From: Escherichia coli
GTDB lineage: Bacteria; Pseudomonadota; Gammaproteobacteria; Enterobacterales; Enterobacteriaceae
Assembly (NCBI RefSeq): GCF_050920415.1
Contig: NZ_CP169309.1
DNA length: 64,000 bases
Strand: one strand, 5' to 3'
Numbering within the stretch: position 1 is the stretch's first letter; every line of letters begins with the position of its first letter. The notes under the pieces are model-generated. The model had not been told where the DNA came from. It worked only from the letters and a program-made list of their open reading frames with translations, and did not search any database. The position numbers and the translations under genes were made by a program. Below are positions 13,462-21,875 of the stretch, piece by piece.

Positions 13462-14580
13462 CTAGCTGGCCGGGAACATAACTAACAAAACGTATCCCAC
13501 CAGCGCCGCCCACAACAGCATCGGTATTGAATAGAGATGGAAACGCCACCAGATACGGCGATCGTTTGCCATCCGTAACGCAATCAAATTTGCCAGCGAT
13601 CCGGGTAATAAACCAAAGCCACCCACGTTTACCGCCCATGCCAGTAATAAAGACGGTGGCACATAATTGAGCAGCAAAATCGTGCTCGGCACGTTACTGA
13701 TCACCTGCGATAAACCAATTGCCGTTAACCATAATCCGGGTTCGGATAAATGGCTCACATTGCTCAACACGCCCTGCAAAGCTGGCAGTTGGGTCAGCAA
13801 ATGGACGTCGATAAACATCGCCATAAATACCAGCAGCAGAGTCCAGTCCACGCTGATCACCACGCGACGAGCCAGCAGCGCAAAGCCCGCCGCTACAATC
13901 ACCAGTCCCCACAGCTCTTGTTTTAACTCCAGCGCCGTCAGAAAGACGATATACAGCCCCAGACAACTCCACACCAGCCGCGGTTTCCACTCAGGTGTTT
14001 GCGCCCCCGTATGATATTGCAGCGCCTTTCCAGGGAAACAACACCAGCACAGTAGCAGGAGTGTCAGCATCATTGCGCCAGCCAGCGGTGCCATTTGGGC
14101 AATAAACCCGGCAAACGAAAGACCAGAACGACCCCAGATAAGAATATTTTGCGGGTTGCCAATCGGCGTCAGTAGCGAACCCGCATTGACTGCCAGCGCC
14201 TCAAAAATAATCAGTCGATTAACCGGGATCTCACACAGTCTTTTTAGTGTGATTGTCAGCGGAACAACAATAAACAGCGCGACATCGTTGGTCAGAAATG
14301 TTGAAAGCAACGCCGCCGCCAGCACCATAAACATTGCCAGCCGACGCTCAGTAGCAAAGCGGCGCACCATTTTGCGCCCCAGCACATCAAAATAACCGCT
14401 TAACTCCACACCTTTGGTCAGCAGCATCAGGCCACTGAGGGTGATGATAGTGTGCCAGTCGATAGCAGCAAGCCAGGATTTCGGTGCAAAGGGAACGAAA
14501 AAACTTAATCCGATGCCAACAAGAATTAATAACTGAAAAAAGCGATCGCCTTGTAGCGTGCGTAAAAAAGGCAGGCTCAT
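13462..14580 (-). CDS. ybiR: Inner-membrane transporter, ArsB/NhaD-like permease
   Basis: 372-aa highly hydrophobic ORF; start overlaps mntR stop (operon arrangement). Confidence 0.88.
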
Positions 14581-15044
14581 TTGGCACCGTGTTTCTGGGT
14601 AAACAAACGAAAGGCATCCAGCGTCTCTTCACTGACATGGTGCTCCATGCCTTCCGCGTCGCGACGAGCGATTTCCGGGCTGACGCCCAACACCAACAAG
14701 AAATTTTCGACTATCTGATGTCGCTCGCGGCTTTCCTGCGCCAGTTTCTCTCCTTCTGCCGTTAAAAACACGCCACGCCAGGGGATCATTTCAATCAGCC
14801 CCATGGTTGCCAGTCGTTTGAGCATTTTAGCCACCGTCGGTTGCGAAACGCCCAGACGAGCAGCCATGTCCACCTGACGAGCTTCCCCCACTTCCCTGAT
14901 CAAGTCAGAAATCAGCTCAACGTAATCATCAATAAGCTCGCGCCGGTGTGCCTCTCTGACCTGGCGGAACCCTTCAACGTGCTCTTCCACATTCACTAAC
15001 TGCGTCACTTTTTTTGCTGTTGGCGTACCTGCGCGACGACTCAT
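14577..15044 (-). CDS. mntR: Manganese-responsive transcriptional regulator (DtxR family)
   Basis: 155-aa ORF with N-terminal HTH and DtxR-like metal-binding C-terminus. Confidence 0.93.
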
Positions 15045-15149: not shown

Positions 15150-15160
15150 TATAATATAGC
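15150..15160. repeat. Left copy of the 11-bp direct repeat tataatatagc (putative attL core)
   Basis: Exact 11-bp match to 47440..47450; host-like sequence to the left, AT-rich foreign sequence to the right. Confidence 0.6.
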
Positions 15161-15409
15161 TTTGGACCCCAATAAAAACCAAATGAAAACAATTAATTAT
15201 GAAAGAAATATCATTGTAATGTCGCAAGAATGTCGCAGAATTTTGAATTTTACATCAAACAGAAATCTTACATAAGTCGTCGAAAAGGAAAACTACCAAT
15301 ATCTTTTCGGTGTTTCCTTTCCCCAAATGGAATTTTTCCTGTTATGCTAATATTCGTTTTAAGGTGTTGATAACTAACATTACACAAAGCAATTAGAACG
15401 GATACTAAC

Positions 15410-16984
15410 ATGGCTAAAAACGCAAAAAACGAGAAACCAAAAAAGTTAGCTTATAGAATAAAAAGTATTAATATTGAAAAATTAAAAGGTATAAATAACT
15501 GCCCTATTTCCTTCCCAGCAGACAGGTCTGTAACTGCTATAATGGGAATTAATGGTTCAGGTAAATCAACAATATTGCACGCTCTATCATGTGTTTTCAA
15601 ACCCAAAGAAAAATCATCCCAAGAAAATAATAGATTTTCTGACTTCTTTACCCCTCACAATGAAAATAACTGGCAAGATAGTAAATTCTCAGTAAAATTT
15701 CGAGCGGGAGAGATAAAAAACAATGGTAATAAAGTCTTTTTTGAAGAAATAGATAATGAAGAAAAGAAAGATATTGTTTATGGCAAGGATAAAAGGTGGA
15801 AACCAGTTTACGCAAGAAGACTTGAAAGAGAATCTATATATATAGGATTACAAAATCTTGCAACGTTAGCTGACAATACAGGAGCATCAAGATACTCAGA
15901 ATATGAAAGAGTAGATATTTATGATAAAGATATAAAGAATCAAATGATATTAGCTCTGAATAAAATCTTAGATGCAGATTACAACGATTTGTTTGAATGC
16001 CGCACCATTAAGGGAAACAAAAAATTCATAGGCATGGTTAAAAACGGCATTGAGTATACAGAACATACTATGGGTGCTGGAGAAAAGAGAGTCTTTGAGA
16101 TAGTTAAAAATGTTTATAATGGAAAGTTAATGCCCAATGGTTTTCTAATCATTGATGAAATAGATGTTTTGCTACATGAAAGAGCTTTTCATGAATTAAT
16201 TAATTTTCTTATCGAAGAAAGCAAGTCTATGTGTTTTGAGGTTGTTTTCACAACACATAGAGAATCCATAATAAAGTTTAAAAATCAAATCAATATAGTA
16301 AGTATATGGAACATAGGGAATGGAATAGAGGCTTATCCCGGCGTTTCTGCGGATGCTCTTCGACAGATATCCAATGTAGAACCTGATATGGTCAATGTGT
16401 TTGTAGAAGACAACTTAGCAAAAACAGCACTAAATATTTTAGTTGAAAGTGAAGGTATGAATGAACAAGTTGATATCTCGCTTTTTGGTTCGGCTGAGAA
16501 TTCAGCTGTAATTTTGTCAGGACTTAAATTAACTGGCAAACGAATTGATACAAGCCTGGCAATTTTAGACGGTGATTACTATATTACCCTCCCTGAAAAG
16601 ACCAAAATGGTTGATAGAGTGTTATCTGGAACAGATAAAAAAGTAGAAAAAAAAGAAGTCTTATCAAGAATATTCCAATTCAATTTAGATGTGACTGACG
16701 TCAAAGGCTCTCCAGAAAAAAACCATCGTGATTGGTTTGAATCTATAGACGAAAACAATATTTCGGAAAATGATAAGACAATGTTTCTTAACCTGAAAAA
16801 ACATTCTACAAGTATTGGTGCTTTAACTGATTATCATGAATATTATCCAGAGTTAGCTCGAAGGTCAAAATTAGATAATATTGAGTACAAAGTTTTGAAT
16901 TATATTAGTAAGTATAGTAATAAATGGGATTTTTACATAAATGATATTAGAAATGAAATAAAAAAAGCAATTGCAGCGATCTAA
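15410..16984 (+). CDS. ABC-type (AAA_21/AAA_15-like) ATPase fused to a C-terminal Toprim/DUF4435-like domain; OLD-family or fused-PARIS-like candidate defence protein
   Basis: Walker A GINGSGKST, signature-like GAGEKR, Walker B LIIDEIDVLLHE, H-loop TTH; C-terminal half has VFVEDN and ILDGDY resembling Toprim E and DxD; about 30 percent GC; own terminator. Confidence 0.6.
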   Translation: MAKNAKNEKPKKLAYRIKSINIEKLKGINNCPISFPADRSVTAIMGINGSGKSTILHALSCVFKPKEKSSQENNRFSDFFTPHNENNWQDSKFSVKFRAGEIKNNGNKVFFEEIDNEEKKDIVYGKDKRWKPVYARRLERESIYIGLQNLATLADNTGASRYSEYERVDIYDKDIKNQMILALNKILDADYNDLFECRTIKGNKKFIGMVKNGIEYTEHTMGAGEKRVFEIVKNVYNGKLMPNGFLIIDEIDVLLHERAFHELINFLIEESKSMCFEVVFTTHRESIIKFKNQINIVSIWNIGNGIEAYPGVSADALRQISNVEPDMVNVFVEDNLAKTALNILVESEGMNEQVDISLFGSAENSAVILSGLKLTGKRIDTSLAILDGDYYITLPEKTKMVDRVLSGTDKKVEKKEVLSRIFQFNLDVTDVKGSPEKNHRDWFESIDENNISENDKTMFLNLKKHSTSIGALTDYHEYYPELARRSKLDNIEYKVLNYISKYSNKWDFYINDIRNEIKKAIAAI

Positions 16985-16991
16985 ACCTCAT

Positions 16992-17020
16992 AAAAGGCGT
17001 AATTTATACGCCTTTTTTTA
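16992..17020. terminator. Rho-independent terminator after the ATPase gene
   Basis: aaaggcgta...tacgccttt stem followed by a run of T. Confidence 0.75.
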
Positions 17021-17181
17021 AGGTTTAAATTATAGTTGCTAATTTCTACTCTTTGTTCCCTCTGTTCGTGCACGTTTCAGGTAGTAAGCTCTCCATCGAA
17101 CCATAGAGATTGAACGCTTTGATTTTTTTTTACATACTGTCTGAAGCTCATTTACTAAGTATTGATAGTCAGGATGACAAC

Positions 17182-17808
17182 ATGACCTCCTACGATGAAC
17201 TTAAAGAATGCATCCGCCTTGAAGTCATTGGCCATGACAAATCCTTTTCATGGCGTAAAGCGTTACTTCGTACCCGACGCAACCAGAAGAAGCACTTCCT
17301 GTTCTGGTGGCGTATCGCTTCATGGCTCTATGGCCAGAATAGTAAGTTCAAAAAGCGCATTGCCCGCAGAATTGAAAACCGCCTCAAGTACCTGCATAGC
17401 GTTGATATTTCGCTGTCATGCAAAATCGGCAAGGGTTTAAACATTGCTCATCTGAACGGTATTGTCATTACTGACAATTGCGTGATTGGTGATTTCGCCG
17501 ACCTGAAGCAAGGCATCACCATAGGGTTACGCACCGACAGTGCCGACGCGATGATAGTCATTGGTGATCATGTTGATATTGGCTGTAATTCGTCCATTCT
17601 GGGCGGCAAGGTTACGATCGGAAACAATGTCACCATTGGGGCGCATTCACTGGTACTTCAGAACATCCCCAGCGACACCGTTTATAAAAACAAGATCACG
17701 CCGGTGTATACATCCAAACTACCGCAGCAGGAATATCAGGAAAATCGGCCTTTTGTCACTGGCAAGGCGATAAAAGAAGCGTCCCGTTCCGCAGAAGCGG
17801 TGCTGTAA
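17182..17808 (+). CDS. Hexapeptide-repeat (left-handed beta-helix) acetyltransferase, serine/sugar O-acetyltransferase-like
   Basis: Tandem hexapeptide repeats (GIVITDNCVIGD, VIGDHVDIGCNSSILGGKVTIGNNVTIGAHSLV); start chosen at ATG 17182 with AGGA RBS, alternative start at 17110; AT-rich. Confidence 0.65.
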   Translation: MTSYDELKECIRLEVIGHDKSFSWRKALLRTRRNQKKHFLFWWRIASWLYGQNSKFKKRIARRIENRLKYLHSVDISLSCKIGKGLNIAHLNGIVITDNCVIGDFADLKQGITIGLRTDSADAMIVIGDHVDIGCNSSILGGKVTIGNNVTIGAHSLVLQNIPSDTVYKNKITPVYTSKLPQQEYQENRPFVTGKAIKEASRSAEAVL

Positions 17809-18186
17809 TTTCGCTGAACAAATTTCAGTTATGAAGATTGCATAAATTTACGTGCAGCCCGCGCCAGCTCTTACAAGCGGGCTAATCTCTATAATGTCTG
17901 GCTTATCTCCCAACGATCCACGAACACCGCCTAAAATATAATTTTCCCTTTATTATCTGTGCGTTATGATTTTACACCGATCCTTAACAGATCCTCTTTA
18001 CTGAAAAAAATGAAATTTCTTTCAATCATTTCAGTTCCTGTTCTCCGCAAAGCCGCCAGTAATGGTGCGGTCTGGCGCTCTGGTTTGTAGAAAAATAAAA
18101 CTGAAAAAATTTCCAGATCCAGAAACCGCAGGCGGGTGCGGTGTAGCGCCGTTTTTGTCTGCGAAAGATTTATTTTGTCGGCGCAT

Positions 18187-18230
18187 CGCAGCGCCAGCGC
18201 AGCGCCAGCGCAGCGCCAGCGCAGCGCCAT
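18187..18230. repeat. Four tandem copies of an 11-bp GC-rich unit (cgcagcgccag)
   Basis: Read directly: cgcagcgccag x3 then cgcagcgccat, in a noncoding spacer between the cargo and the last phage gene. Confidence 0.8.
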
Positions 18231-18352
18231 GCGCACGATCTTTTATGTGTGTTGCGTTGGGTTAATTTGTTGCCTGAAGTGCTGAGGGCGCGTTCTGCTG
18301 CGTCTGAGGAAGGGTATGAAAAAGCCCGCATTATGCGGGCGTGTTGTCATGG

Positions 18353-20056
18353 TCAGGCAATTATATTCTGGTACTTGCTCCGGGTCTGCCCTGCTTTCGT
18401 CGCCGTCTGTACGAACGCGTCAGCATTGGTTGGCGTCCCAACAGTGGGGTGTGAATGGTTCGCGCATTGCTGCGCCAGCTCTGCCAGTAAATCAATGGTA
18501 TCCAGCATCATGGTCAGGGCGTTGATACTCTCGCTGCCAATATGGACAGTTGCCCCCATGACCTGCTGACCGCCAGCGGCCACTGATTTACGCAGTGCGG
18601 CAATCTTCTCTGTCAGGCTTTCGCCAACCTCCACGGCTACAGCACCGCCCACTTTAGTGGACTGCTGTCCTGCTATGTCCGTTTCTTCGTTTCCTTCAAT
18701 ACTGGCCAGCCTGTTTCCTTTCACCGCCTGGCTATAATCACCGGCGCTTACCTGCTGGATGGCTCCGGCCAGCAGTGTGGCGGTTCCCAGTACCGTGGTT
18801 TTATCCGTGGCTTTCACCGTGGTTTCACGGCTGACCAGTTCGCGCTGTTCCGTATCGGCTTTTACGGTTCGCGCCATCGATGTTTCGCTGATGGTCTGAT
18901 CGGTCTGCCTTACCCAGTCGCCCGCCTGAGTCACCCTCTGGGATACTTCTTCCCGCTGCTGCTGCAACTGTTCACCGGGTTTAACGTCCGGCAGACTGGT
19001 GCCATCCGGTAGCGTCTGCCTGATAAAAGGTTTATCCGGTCTGCCTCCCGTGAATGCAACCTCAACCAGCGTCCCTTCTGGCGGAAACTGAAACATACCT
19101 GAATCATTCCCGGCCATTGGTACCGGCAGCGGCACCGCTGAATAAACAGGCGTCTGATTGTCCGGGTTTCCGTCTGCGTCAAGCAGCTGCACGTCCACGG
19201 CGTAACGTGGCCGGAAGGGATCGGCAAAGTTACCGCTTTTTACCGGCTCTGAATGCGCCACAACTCTGGCCATCTTTGGCAAATGAAGCCCGGATGCCAG
19301 TTCCGGGTAATGGCTTTCAATCTGCCGTTGCGCCGGTGTTTTCTGCAAAGGTTTACCCGTTGCGCGGTTTCTCGGCGTCCATGTGATCGCCATCGCGTCA
19401 TTAGTCAGGTGAACTTTAGTCACGCGTTCACCGTTCATCTCCACCCCTGGCCGCATAGTCTGGATCACTGGTAATGTCACAGAGTTACCGCCAGCAGCCC
19501 CCTGGCTGAACTCTGACGGGATTTCTACGGGGCGACCGGCAAATAATGACTTTTCTGCGCCGCCGACGTAAAGCGAACCATCAGGCAACTGGTACCAGAT
19601 GTAATCCTGGATACTGAACGCCCTTCCCAGATTGTTCAGCAACTGATAACCAGTACCGTTATGGGTAAAATGTGGGATGGGGGTATCGCTGTACTGTGCA
19701 TCAGGCACACTGACCGTGATCCCGCTGTTTTCTTCCAGCCAGCTGGCAACCTCGCGTAAAGTTGGATGTTGAAATGAGCACGGCCACATCCTTTCAAATA
19801 CACCTGCCAGCTCACGAATGAACAGACGCTGAAAACCGTTTTCAGCGGGCTGCGATCGCTCCACATACCCCGTAAACCAGCGCAAAAGCAGATCGGTATA
19901 CCCCACATCCAGCCGCACCAGTTTTCCGGTGTAATCGGTTGTTGTCTCTGCGGTGATGAAGCCCCGGCCGCAGCTGTTCAGCTCCAGTACCAGGCTGGCA
20001 TCCACCAGGTGAACTTCATCAGTTGAAAGGTAAAGGCGTTTTACTGGTTTCATCAT
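18353..20056 (-). CDS. Phage protein, last gene of the tail operon; possibly baseplate hub / late-control-D-like (uncertain)
   Basis: 567-aa ORF translationally coupled to the upstream gene, phage-like GC content; function inferred from position only. Confidence 0.35.
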   Translation of the reverse strand: MMKPVKRLYLSTDEVHLVDASLVLELNSCGRGFITAETTTDYTGKLVRLDVGYTDLLLRWFTGYVERSQPAENGFQRLFIRELAGVFERMWPCSFQHPTLREVASWLEENSGITVSVPDAQYSDTPIPHFTHNGTGYQLLNNLGRAFSIQDYIWYQLPDGSLYVGGAEKSLFAGRPVEIPSEFSQGAAGGNSVTLPVIQTMRPGVEMNGERVTKVHLTNDAMAITWTPRNRATGKPLQKTPAQRQIESHYPELASGLHLPKMARVVAHSEPVKSGNFADPFRPRYAVDVQLLDADGNPDNQTPVYSAVPLPVPMAGNDSGMFQFPPEGTLVEVAFTGGRPDKPFIRQTLPDGTSLPDVKPGEQLQQQREEVSQRVTQAGDWVRQTDQTISETSMARTVKADTEQRELVSRETTVKATDKTTVLGTATLLAGAIQQVSAGDYSQAVKGNRLASIEGNEETDIAGQQSTKVGGAVAVEVGESLTEKIAALRKSVAAGGQQVMGATVHIGSESINALTMMLDTIDLLAELAQQCANHSHPTVGTPTNADAFVQTATKAGQTRSKYQNIIA

Positions 20057-20601
20057 TAACCCAAAGCATCATTGACGGGCTTCAGCACCTTGCGTTCAAA
20101 CCACGTCAGTTTTTCTTCATCTTCTCCGGCAGACTGGCCACCGGACTGTCCCGCACTGCCGGTAGTCTGTTTTTTTGCGGTCGTCTTACCTGTTGCCCTG
20201 GCCTCTCGCTTTTCCTGCACGCTGATATGTTCCGCCAGTGTGAATGTCACCAGCCAGGCCATTTTCCCGTCCTGCTGGGGTGCATCCAGCATTCCGCTGA
20301 ACGTTGCTTCACGAAAATTAACAGCACGGGCAACTTCATGCGCCACGCGGTACTTCTGACGATTACCACTGGCATCGGTAGCACTGGCCAGCTCAAAAAT
20401 ACGCTTCAGTATTTCAGGCTGTTTAAAAGGTATTTCACCGCTGATCCGCAGTTCCTTTCCCTTTGCTCCCTGCTCTGATTTTGTTGTGGCGCTGGTCTGG
20501 CCGGACTGATCTTTATCCTGAAATTGCTGTGAAACAGTCACCCGCATGTTTTTCAGCTGGATGGCCTCGCCATTAAGCGCCAGTGTCGGGATCGAAGTCA
20601 T
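20056..20601 (-). CDS. Phage protein of unknown function (tail operon)
   Basis: 181-aa ORF with overlapping start and stop to its neighbours; no motif recognised. Confidence 0.4.
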   Translation of the reverse strand: MTSIPTLALNGEAIQLKNMRVTVSQQFQDKDQSGQTSATTKSEQGAKGKELRISGEIPFKQPEILKRIFELASATDASGNRQKYRVAHEVARAVNFREATFSGMLDAPQQDGKMAWLVTFTLAEHISVQEKREARATGKTTAKKQTTGSAGQSGGQSAGEDEEKLTWFERKVLKPVNDALG

Positions 20602-21298
20602 GAATCATTCCCTTTATTCCATCAAGATTATCGCCAACCAGCATCATGGCAGCGGTGTAAACGGCAGACTGCTGCGGAATGTCCTTCACCAGTTCCAGTA
20701 ACGTGGTGCCGGTGTCTCCGCTGGCAGTAAAAACCCACACTCTGGCACTCTTTCCCTGTAAATCATTCAGGCCGCTGGCTACATCACTGATAAGCTGGTC
20801 ACGCAGCTGCGTGAACTCGCCCAGCTGTTTTTTCAGCCCTTCGATATCAAACCCGGCATCCGCCGCCTTTTGTGCCTGGCTGATTGCCGTAGCAGATAAA
20901 GCTGCCCTGCTGGTTGGTACAGACAGCGGAATGGACGCAGGTAACGCTGCGGCGGTTTTCGCAGGGATCTGCATCTTTTCAATAGCCAGCGCTGCGGCGG
21001 ATTGCGCCAGTCGTTTGACCTGCGTGAATGCCGGGGCGGGGAAAATCCCGACCAGGTTATTCAGGCTGGCCATAAAGTTTTCCTGTGTCTGTCCGGTGAC
21101 CATCATAATCACCACGTCCGCATTCCCCCCAGTTCCGGCCAGGCGTTCAGCAAGATAGCGAACGGCATTAACCGGGCTGAGATATGCCCCGTTCGCAGTC
21201 TGCTGTCCCAGCCCATAAATCCACGGATGCGCAGGAACGATCGAACAGTTCAGCGCAGCAACAGAATCCGTGAAGGCCAGACGTGCTTCACGCCACAT
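20573..21298 (-). CDS. Phage protein of unknown function (tail operon)
   Basis: ORF downstream of the tail fibre assembly gene; start uncertain (21298 or 21334). Confidence 0.4.
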   Translation of the reverse strand: MWREARLAFTDSVAALNCSIVPAHPWIYGLGQQTANGAYLSPVNAVRYLAERLAGTGGNADVVIMMVTGQTQENFMASLNNLVGIFPAPAFTQVKRLAQSAAALAIEKMQIPAKTAAALPASIPLSVPTSRAALSATAISQAQKAADAGFDIEGLKKQLGEFTQLRDQLISDVASGLNDLQGKSARVWVFTASGDTGTTLLELVKDIPQQSAVYTAAMMLVGDNLDGIKGMIHDFDPDTGA

Positions 21299-21875
21299 TT
21301 CCAGGCACCTCCGGCCACACAATTTCCGGCGCATCTTCCGGTTGAATACGGTTCAGTAAAACGCGGTATTTTTTCCAGGCGGTAAGCAGCAGTGCTTCTT
21401 CTTCAGTCGCCATGTCTAAATCAACGGCATCCTGCAATGTGGCAATGGCGTCATTGGCCTGTTTAAGCAGTCTTTTCTTTTCGGCGTCTGCCTCGCTGAC
21501 TAATGCAATTCGCATGGCCTCCGCATCATCCACCCACGCCTTACCATTCCATTTTTGCCAGGCATTAGCCGGTGCAGACGTGGTTGTCCCTTCCGGGTAA
21601 GCGCCTGGCTCGGTGATCACCAGTTCATTACCGTTTTCTGTATCAAACACCACCTCACCACGATGATCCTCACGGGAAATCCATCTTTGCTTCTCTGAAT
21701 CAAAAATTGCCACAAACCCCGCTTTGATTACCGGTGGTTTTATTGTGGTGCAGTTAGCTGGTAGTCCGGTATGCGCAGGTATAAAAGCGTCACCCGAACC
21801 AATAAATTCATTCGTGTCGGAACGCAGGTTATAAACAGTAACTATTTGATCGGTTTCACTCATTTTAAAAGTCAT
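21288..21875 (-). CDS. Tail fibre assembly chaperone (gpG/Tfa-like)
   Basis: 195-aa ORF immediately after the tail fibre gene with the typical acidic, helical Tfa C-terminus. Confidence 0.65.
   Translation of the reverse strand: MTFKMSETDQIVTVYNLRSDTNEFIGSGDAFIPAHTGLPANCTTIKPPVIKAGFVAIFDSEKQRWISREDHRGEVVFDTENGNELVITEPGAYPEGTTTSAPANAWQKWNGKAWVDDAEAMRIALVSEADAEKKRLLKQANDAIATLQDAVDLDMATEEEALLLTAWKKYRVLLNRIQPEDAPEIVWPEVPGNVA

Follow-up and report, generated by a model that had tools for sequence, protein, structure and literature searches.

A baseplate module of the HP1 type very probably follows the tail fibre assembly gene of a P2-like prophage of Escherichia coli, with the cargo hotspot one step downstream

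The 64,000-nucleotide (nt) stretch of Escherichia coli DNA analysed here (contig NZ_CP169309.1; the window) carries a P2-like prophage whose late tail operon ends, after the gene for the tail fibre assembly protein Tfa, in three minus-strand genes, hereafter the trio (Table 1). An original prediction made by reading the DNA had described them as open reading frames (ORFs) of 253, 181 and 567 amino acids (aa) at the position of the P2 Z/fun hotspot, and held that two possibilities, a displaced baseplate core with the hub and spike, or defence cargo, could not be separated by eye. The ORFs lie where that reading placed them, with the correction that the first probably encodes 241 aa, and its account of their setting also holds: the guanine-cytosine (GC) contents of the three genes are 0.556, 0.524 and 0.552, like those of the neighbouring tail genes and against 0.315 in the adjacent ATPase gene; overlaps of 11 nt (with the Tfa gene), 29 nt and 1 nt, the last at a TAATG junction, couple their translation; and a predicted terminator, with a stem of 7 base pairs (bp), 6 of them GC pairs, on the minus strand at 18340-18324, closes the tail operon directly behind the third gene. 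As set out below, the trio are homologues of orf33-35 of phage HP1 and, in all likelihood, form the inner-baseplate module of an HP1-subgroup P2-like prophage. Such a module has already been described for the HP1 type, and its RefSeq relatives are annotated as baseplate protein.

The translation start of the first gene is most likely the ATG at 21298, because GGAGG stands 9 nt upstream of it, because it overlaps the Tfa stop (ATGTGGCGTGA), and because the same start is annotated in RefSeq relatives; the 253-aa version is the maximal ORF.

Judged by its closest relatives, the prophage is ESSI-2-like and belongs to the HP1 subgroup of P2-like phages (Peduoviridae, genus Quadragintavirus). The 2,982-bp trio region is 96-98% identical in nucleotide sequence to Escherichia phages ESSI2_ev015, ev129, ev239 and ev040, which are plaque-forming temperate coliphages from infant gut viromes (PMC6969025), and 74% identical to Cronobacter phage ESSI-2. 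Genes gp01-gp03 of the four Escherichia phages have the same layout as the trio. The 30.6-kb ESSI2_ev015 genome, with 43 genes in its RefSeq annotation, orders its tail genes as sheath, tube, holin, endolysin, spanin, chaperone, tape measure, DUF2590 (gpW-like), J, I, fibre, Tfa and trio; besides the trio, none of these 43 genes is annotated as a hub or spike gene.

Along its whole length the 567-aa product of the third gene matches phrog_2258, 'baseplate protein' (E 5.6e-276), and is 42% identical to HP1 orf35, which has been described as a fusion of homologues of P2 gpD and gpV (PMC10612066 Table S1). Its N-terminal ~245 residues align end to end, at 33% identity, with a stand-alone 235-aa protein, gp48 of phage ACA1; published HHpred comparisons assign both gp48 and the N-terminal part of HP1 orf35 to P2 gpD, at 10% identity (PMC10612066). 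Behind this module, which would correspond to the 'mounting' domain, lies a segment matching the OB fold of the Pfam Phage_base_V family, and in a search of PDB sequences VgrG chains align weakly to residues 312-475 (E 0.002-0.01). The same search matched the C-terminal beta-helix of T4 gp5 to residues 413-508 at E 5e-7, or 8e-8 with the family profile; Gp5_trimer_C was found in the Pfam scan at E 0.002, and further matches were phrog_694 and phrog_430 ('baseplate hub and tail lysozyme'). The two histidines of an H-x-H motif near the C-terminal tip, H534 and H536, are invariant across 25 aligned family members, HP1 included, and the motif also occurs near the C-termini of P2 gpV (LHTHKHP) and ACA1 gp49 (NHGHT); by analogy with the published structures of gpV and gp138, this tip presumably binds metal. 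Sequence comparison thus identifies the 567-aa protein as a hub and spike in a single chain, in which a putative gpD-like module precedes an OB fold, a beta-helix of the gp5 type and, last, an HxH tip. NCBIfam VgrG models reach the protein only below threshold (16 bits against a cut-off of 122-186).

The 181-aa product of the second gene matches Pfam family PF25759, 'Bacteriophage HP1 ORF34 baseplate complex protein' (2.2e-54), and phrog_1398 (8.9e-75); its relatives are named 'baseplate complex protein' in NCBI and UniRef, and HP1 orf34 is found by tblastn at 6e-28, with 47% identity, as are the orf34 homologues of HP2, K139 and Kappa. The AlphaFold2 model of the protein has a mean predicted local distance difference test score (pLDDT) of 70.9, with core blocks within residues 51-120 at 84-92 and disordered loops. 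The predicted fold is that of a tail tube (Hcp-like), similar to many tube and Hcp proteins and closest to tube initiators and 'ripcord' proteins. From this model we infer that the 181-aa protein initiates the tube or serves as an analogue of 'ripcord' proteins, with a function like that of P2 gpU or pyocin PA0626, and that it would fill a gpU-like role from outside the gpU Pfam family.

The names 'adenine glycosylase', 'nucleoid DNA-binding protein' and 'DNA-binding protein' are attached to some 181-aa homologues; we rejected them as annotation artefacts on the strength of PF25759 and the tube fold. The misnamed homologues in GenBank are those of PV94, vB_YenM_324, phi3 and ValB1MD-2 (hits H83, H94, H107 and H109), and these names are probably mis-annotations that have propagated.

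Several results weigh against assigning the trio to the baseplate core by way of P2. When 19 non-redundant N-terminal domains of the 567-aa family were compared by hhalign with 11 gpD proteins, the match was weak (score 32.7, P 1e-3, probability 21.6%); this alignment is colinear, pairing 1-244 with 12-261, and reversed and unrelated controls score 13-22. With the shallow profiles used for hhalign, neither the family profile of the 567-aa protein against single P2 gpD and gpV sequences nor the 181-aa family against P2 gpU gave a significant match. The Pfam scan returned only PF25759 for the 181-aa protein, with no match to the gpU family PF06995, and it likewise gave no match of the 567-aa protein to the gpD family PF05954. 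The authors of the ACA1 study call the link between gp47, the 181-aa homologue, and gpU uncertain (PMC10612066), and gp47 was not detected in ACA1 virions by mass spectrometry (PMC10612066 Table S2). The same analysis did detect gp46 (the orf33-like protein), gp48 and gp49 in virions, gp46 at a low level of 2 spectra and 6% coverage (PMC10612066 Table S2), and according to its authors the proteins not expected in virions went undetected (PMC10612066). For PV94, the virion proteins identified in the published work were the tape-measure protein and one baseplate protein only. Structural homology combined with detection in virions, which the original prediction had named as its refutation, was found for two of the three genes; for the 241-aa protein it is weak, with no structural homologue and the two spectra in a relative.

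The cargo alternative holds that the trio, or at least its 241-aa gene, serves defence, superinfection exclusion or lysogenic conversion at a hotspot equivalent to Z/fun. It draws on the position of the trio after the Tfa gene, where P2 has Z/fun, and on the 241-aa protein, for which neither a family nor a fold relative was recognised and which evolves faster than its neighbours. Position after Tfa is indeed as the original prediction had it, but the gene order of the subgroup differs from that of P2, so that the equation with Z/fun does not carry over. P2 has V, then W-J-I-H-G, Z/fun after G, then FI-FII-E-T-U-D, ogr and attP, whereas in the HP1 subgroup the block from sheath to tape measure stands before W, and the equivalents of U, D and V come after G; because they do, 'after G' is not a cargo slot in this subgroup. 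The GC content of the trio matches that of the tail genes, and the trio is coupled within the late operon, with the terminator only past the third gene. The suggested scan for defence families with PADLOC was run, and it gave no match for any trio protein; the neighbouring ATPase matches 72 families.

Comparison across relatives also speaks for a conserved core. In HP1, HP2, K139, Kappa, F108, ACA1 and ESSI-2, homologues of the trio come after Tfa and close the late operon, and the family keeps this position from phages of Haemophilus and Pasteurella to those of Vibrio, Yersinia and Enterobacteriaceae. Relatives of the 567-aa protein are encoded in the 80 IMG/VR loci that were retrieved; upstream DNA sufficed for the comparison in 79 of them, and in 75 of these 79 the trio genes stand side by side in unchanged order. 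Of the four exceptions three were examined, and all are deletion derivatives: in L010 the capsid region is joined directly to the 567-aa gene, in L028 the genes from gpI through orf33 are absent, and in L081 a 5'-truncated 567-aa gene stands beside regulatory genes. These three look like decaying prophages that have kept the end of the operon.

The DNA just downstream of the terminator behaves differently: the window and 57 loci that extend 1 kb or more past the gene, 58 sequences in all, group there into 37 clusters by similarity, with GC contents of 0.35-0.51. Where E. coli prophages occupy the same mntR site, the trio is retained and the genes between it and mntR vary, the sets being an AAA ATPase with an acetyltransferase; DprA with DUF6680; AIPR; an ATP-binding protein with STAS-like and PIN proteins; and DUF6338. 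The same trio thus stands beside different cargo at one site. That the trio itself is cargo is therefore very improbable, and between the two possibilities once thought indistinguishable the evidence chooses the baseplate core, with phrog_2258, the OB fold and beta-helix, PF25759, the tube fold and the HP1 orf33-35 synteny in its favour.

A hotspot does exist at this locus, immediately downstream of the trio and not within it. The variable cargo island of the window, at about 15161-18320, lies between attL (beside mntR) and the tail-operon terminator, and contains an ATPase gene of the ABC/SMC type and a serine acetyltransferase gene. The ATPase has the Pfam domains SMC_N, AAA_15 and AAA_21, and its best-placed PADLOC family (Table 1) is followed by weaker matches to the ATPase-Toprim, OLD and Gabija-like (GajA-like) ATPase models. 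For annotators and for those who search for defence islands this amounts to a correction: what follows Tfa in P2-like prophages of the HP1 subgroup is, in all likelihood, a set of essential baseplate genes, and the hotspot is to be sought in the next interval, from the tail-operon terminator to the attachment site, which differs in almost every related prophage.

The 241-aa product of the first gene matches phrog_1677, a family with no function assigned there, at E 1.4e-75, and found no match in Pfam, NCBIfam, PADLOC or PDB sequences, at permissive E-values too in the case of Pfam and PDB. By tblastn it finds HP1 orf33 (8e-16; 28% identity), HP2 orf33 (3e-14) and K139 orf37 (2e-7), and the orf33 family also takes in F108 and Kappa kp43; the family profile aligns with ACA1 gp46 by hhalign at a probability of 96.8% (E 2.4e-10). 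In a library of 1.84 billion proteins the orf33-type family is of modest size, with 108 representative clusters. The structure of the protein is predicted with confidence as an alpha/beta domain and a long helical hairpin, a fold for which comparison with solved structures returned no relative, and to which fibre chaperones are not similar. Across relatives it diverges faster than its neighbours: its median identity is 75%, while the 181-aa protein stands at 86% and the 567-aa protein at 79.5%. The orf33-type protein is thus a widespread, confidently folded tail-operon protein and the sole member of the trio without an assigned function. We infer that it is probably a minor, low-copy component of the baseplate or virion, or an assembly factor.

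One alternative places the 241-aa protein in the tail-fibre apparatus, as a second fibre chaperone or as an adaptor that docks the N-terminal domain of the fibre on the wedge. Its gene directly follows and overlaps that of Tfa, its homologue is a low-abundance virion protein in ACA1 (PMC10612066), and, across relatives, its identity to the window copy tracks that of the fibre N-terminal (baseplate-attachment) domain as well as that of gpI (Spearman 0.91 each). The 181-aa protein (0.94) and the hub module (0.92), however, correlate with it at least as strongly, known fibre chaperones differ from it in fold, and in ACA1 the orf33-type gene follows a diversity-generating retroelement cassette, not Tfa, and yet precedes the orf34 homologue. 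Loci in which neither the fibre C-terminus nor Tfa can be detected any longer moreover still have the 241-aa gene, at 82-86% identity, and because it is retained without them it lies outside the receptor-binding cassette. We therefore consider a place in the fibre apparatus unlikely.

About equally improbable is a non-structural role for the 241-aa protein, as an assembly factor (for example a chaperone of the hub or the tape measure) that is absent from mature virions. The small amount of gp46 in ACA1 could be carry-over, and a predicted alpha/beta domain with a helical hairpin is unlike the solved baseplate proteins; on the other side, gp46 was seen in virions in which unexpected proteins were not (PMC10612066), and the canonical tail chaperone genes of this phage are upstream, beside the tape-measure gene. 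Better placed than either, though still tentative, is the possibility that the 241-aa protein is a true, previously uncharacterised structural part of the HP1-type baseplate whose fold none of the solved contractile-tail structures shows. If so, the HP1-subgroup baseplate has a part unmatched in P2, Mu, T4, pyocins or type VI secretion systems (T6SS), and this part might stand in for the missing protein of the LysM/gpX type or make up a collar that lies between the hub and the wedge or fibre.

A scheme of assembly can be proposed by analogy with the established contractile-tail baseplates of P2, Mu, pyocin R2, T4 and the T6SS. Coupled translation of the trio would proceed from the late tail transcript, and this transcript would end at the terminator (18340-18319). 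The 567-aa protein would trimerise into the central hub and the membrane-piercing needle, analogous to VgrG or gp27-gp5, and the baseplate would assemble on this trimer, with the gpD-like N-terminal module presumably under the tube. A ring of the 181-aa protein would link the hub to the first ring of the tube and seed tube polymerisation, or else serve as an adaptor of the ripcord type; the proteins W, J and I, encoded upstream, would supply the sheath initiator and the wedges; and the 241-aa protein would be a low-copy partner in assembly, at the hub, the wedge or the fibre collar, or as a chaperone.

The genes upstream, from the gpW-like gene through Tfa, belong to the same operon (21288..25568, minus strand). 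At the other end, the prophage sits between mntR (14577-15044) and mntS/ybiP. A repeat search of the prophage ends found no exact repeats of at least 12 nt as att sites; the only candidate for an att core is an 11-nt exact repeat, TATAATATAGC, at 15150-15160 and 47440-47450 (E 0.08, not robust). Inside both prophage ends, at 15218-15236 and 47324-47342, is a 19-nt near-repeat made of two AATGTCGC units, which may be an arm-type site of the integrase.

Just downstream of the tail-operon terminator, in intergenic DNA at 18187-18235, the 11-nt unit CGCAGCGCCAG is repeated in tandem 4.4 times (97% matches). In some E. coli relatives a small hypothetical gene (110 aa, WP_000787654.1; also L002 4349-4681) separates the cargo from the 567-aa gene; the window has here only a 90-aa ORF, at 17964-18236 on the minus strand, without a PADLOC match. 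A second cargo slot of the same prophage lies between the repressor gene (43819-44403) and the integrase gene (46312-47352), and is occupied by a plus-strand gene of 497 aa (44772-46265; GC ~0.30) whose PADLOC match, at 3.4e-106, is to the candidate defence family PDC-S49; in ESSI2_ev015 this slot holds no gene.

Table 1. Features of the trio, its operon and the adjoining cargo island, in window coordinates.
Feature	Coordinates	Strand	Size or residues	Basis or remark
Gene 1, orf33-like, maximal ORF	20573-21334	minus	253 aa	
Gene 1, orf33-like, likely reading	20573..21298	minus	241 aa	
Gene 2, orf34-like	20056-20601	minus	181 aa	
Gene 3, orf35-like	18353-20056	minus	567 aa	
Putative gpD-like N-terminal module ('mounting' domain) of gene 3	19322..20056	minus	residues ~1-245	ACA1 gp48 alignment; weak hhalign match to gpD
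OB-fold segment of gene 3	19022..19132	minus	residues 309-345	Pfam Phage_base_V PF04717, E 3.3e-4
Triple-stranded beta-helix needle of gene 3	18533..18820	minus	residues 413-508	T4 gp5 beta-helix PDB matches
H-x-H motif of gene 3, near C-terminal tip	18449..18457	minus	H534, S535, H536	Alignment
Intrinsic terminator (predicted)	18319..18340	minus		GCCCGCATAATGCGGGC then TTTTT; strong; ~12 nt past the stop of the 567-aa gene
gpW-like sheath initiator	25221-25568	minus		PHROG match; ESSI2_ev015 RefSeq annotation (DUF2590); HP1 gene order
gpJ-like wedge	24040-25278	minus		PHROG match; ESSI2_ev015 RefSeq annotation; HP1 gene order
gpI-like gene	23460-24053	minus		PHROG match; ESSI2_ev015 RefSeq annotation; HP1 gene order
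Tail fibre gene	21875-23449	minus	524 aa	PHROG match; ESSI2_ev015 RefSeq annotation; HP1 gene order
Tfa gene	21288-21875	minus	195 aa	phrog_105, 5.7e-83; ESSI2_ev015 RefSeq annotation; HP1 gene order
ABC/SMC-type ATPase	15410-16984	plus	524 aa	GC 0.315; PADLOC HEC-04, 3e-33 (candidate family)
Serine acetyltransferase gene	17110-17808	plus		Common to ESSI2_ev015, 92.6% nt identity

The nearest known systems are those of the HP1 subgroup itself. The trio is homologous, in the same order, to HP1 orf33-35, K139 orf37 and the genes that follow it, Kappa kp43/kp44, ACA1 gp46-gp49 and the corresponding genes of ESSI-2. HP1 and the window share an identical gene order, with the trio last in the late operon and the hub and spike fused in both; the two trios differ by sequence only, and no difference in kind was found. 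In ACA1 the hub and the spike are two separate genes, while its gene order otherwise ends alike. The ESSI2_ev phages differ from the window in their downstream cargo: in the window an additional low-GC ATPase gene stands between the acetyltransferase gene common to both and attL.

In more distant contractile systems the same roles would fall to P2 gpU/gpD/gpV, pyocin R2 PA0626/PA0628/PA0616 and Mu gp43/gp44/gp45, that is, to a tube-fold adaptor, a hub and a spike with an OB fold, a beta-helix and an HxH motif. As in P2, the wedge partners W, J and I are encoded upstream in the window; unlike in P2, the hub and spike are fused, and the orf33-type protein has no P2 counterpart. No LysM gpX-like gene is annotated in ESSI2_ev015. 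A single chain of hub, OB fold and beta-helix is the architecture that the 567-aa protein shares with VgrG of the T6SS and with T4 gp27-gp5; its match to the gp5 beta-helix is significant (5e-7), whereas the matches to VgrG chains are sub-threshold (6sjl 0.0049, 9jg8 0.11). It differs from both systems in having no lysozyme domain, in its phage-tail context and in an N-terminal module that matches gpD weakly. Like P2 with its Z/fun and tin/old hotspots, the prophage of the window also has a variable low-GC island near the end of the tail operon, including an ABC/OLD-like ATPase; here, however, the cargo lies between the operon terminator and attL, whereas Z/fun of P2 lies between G and FI.

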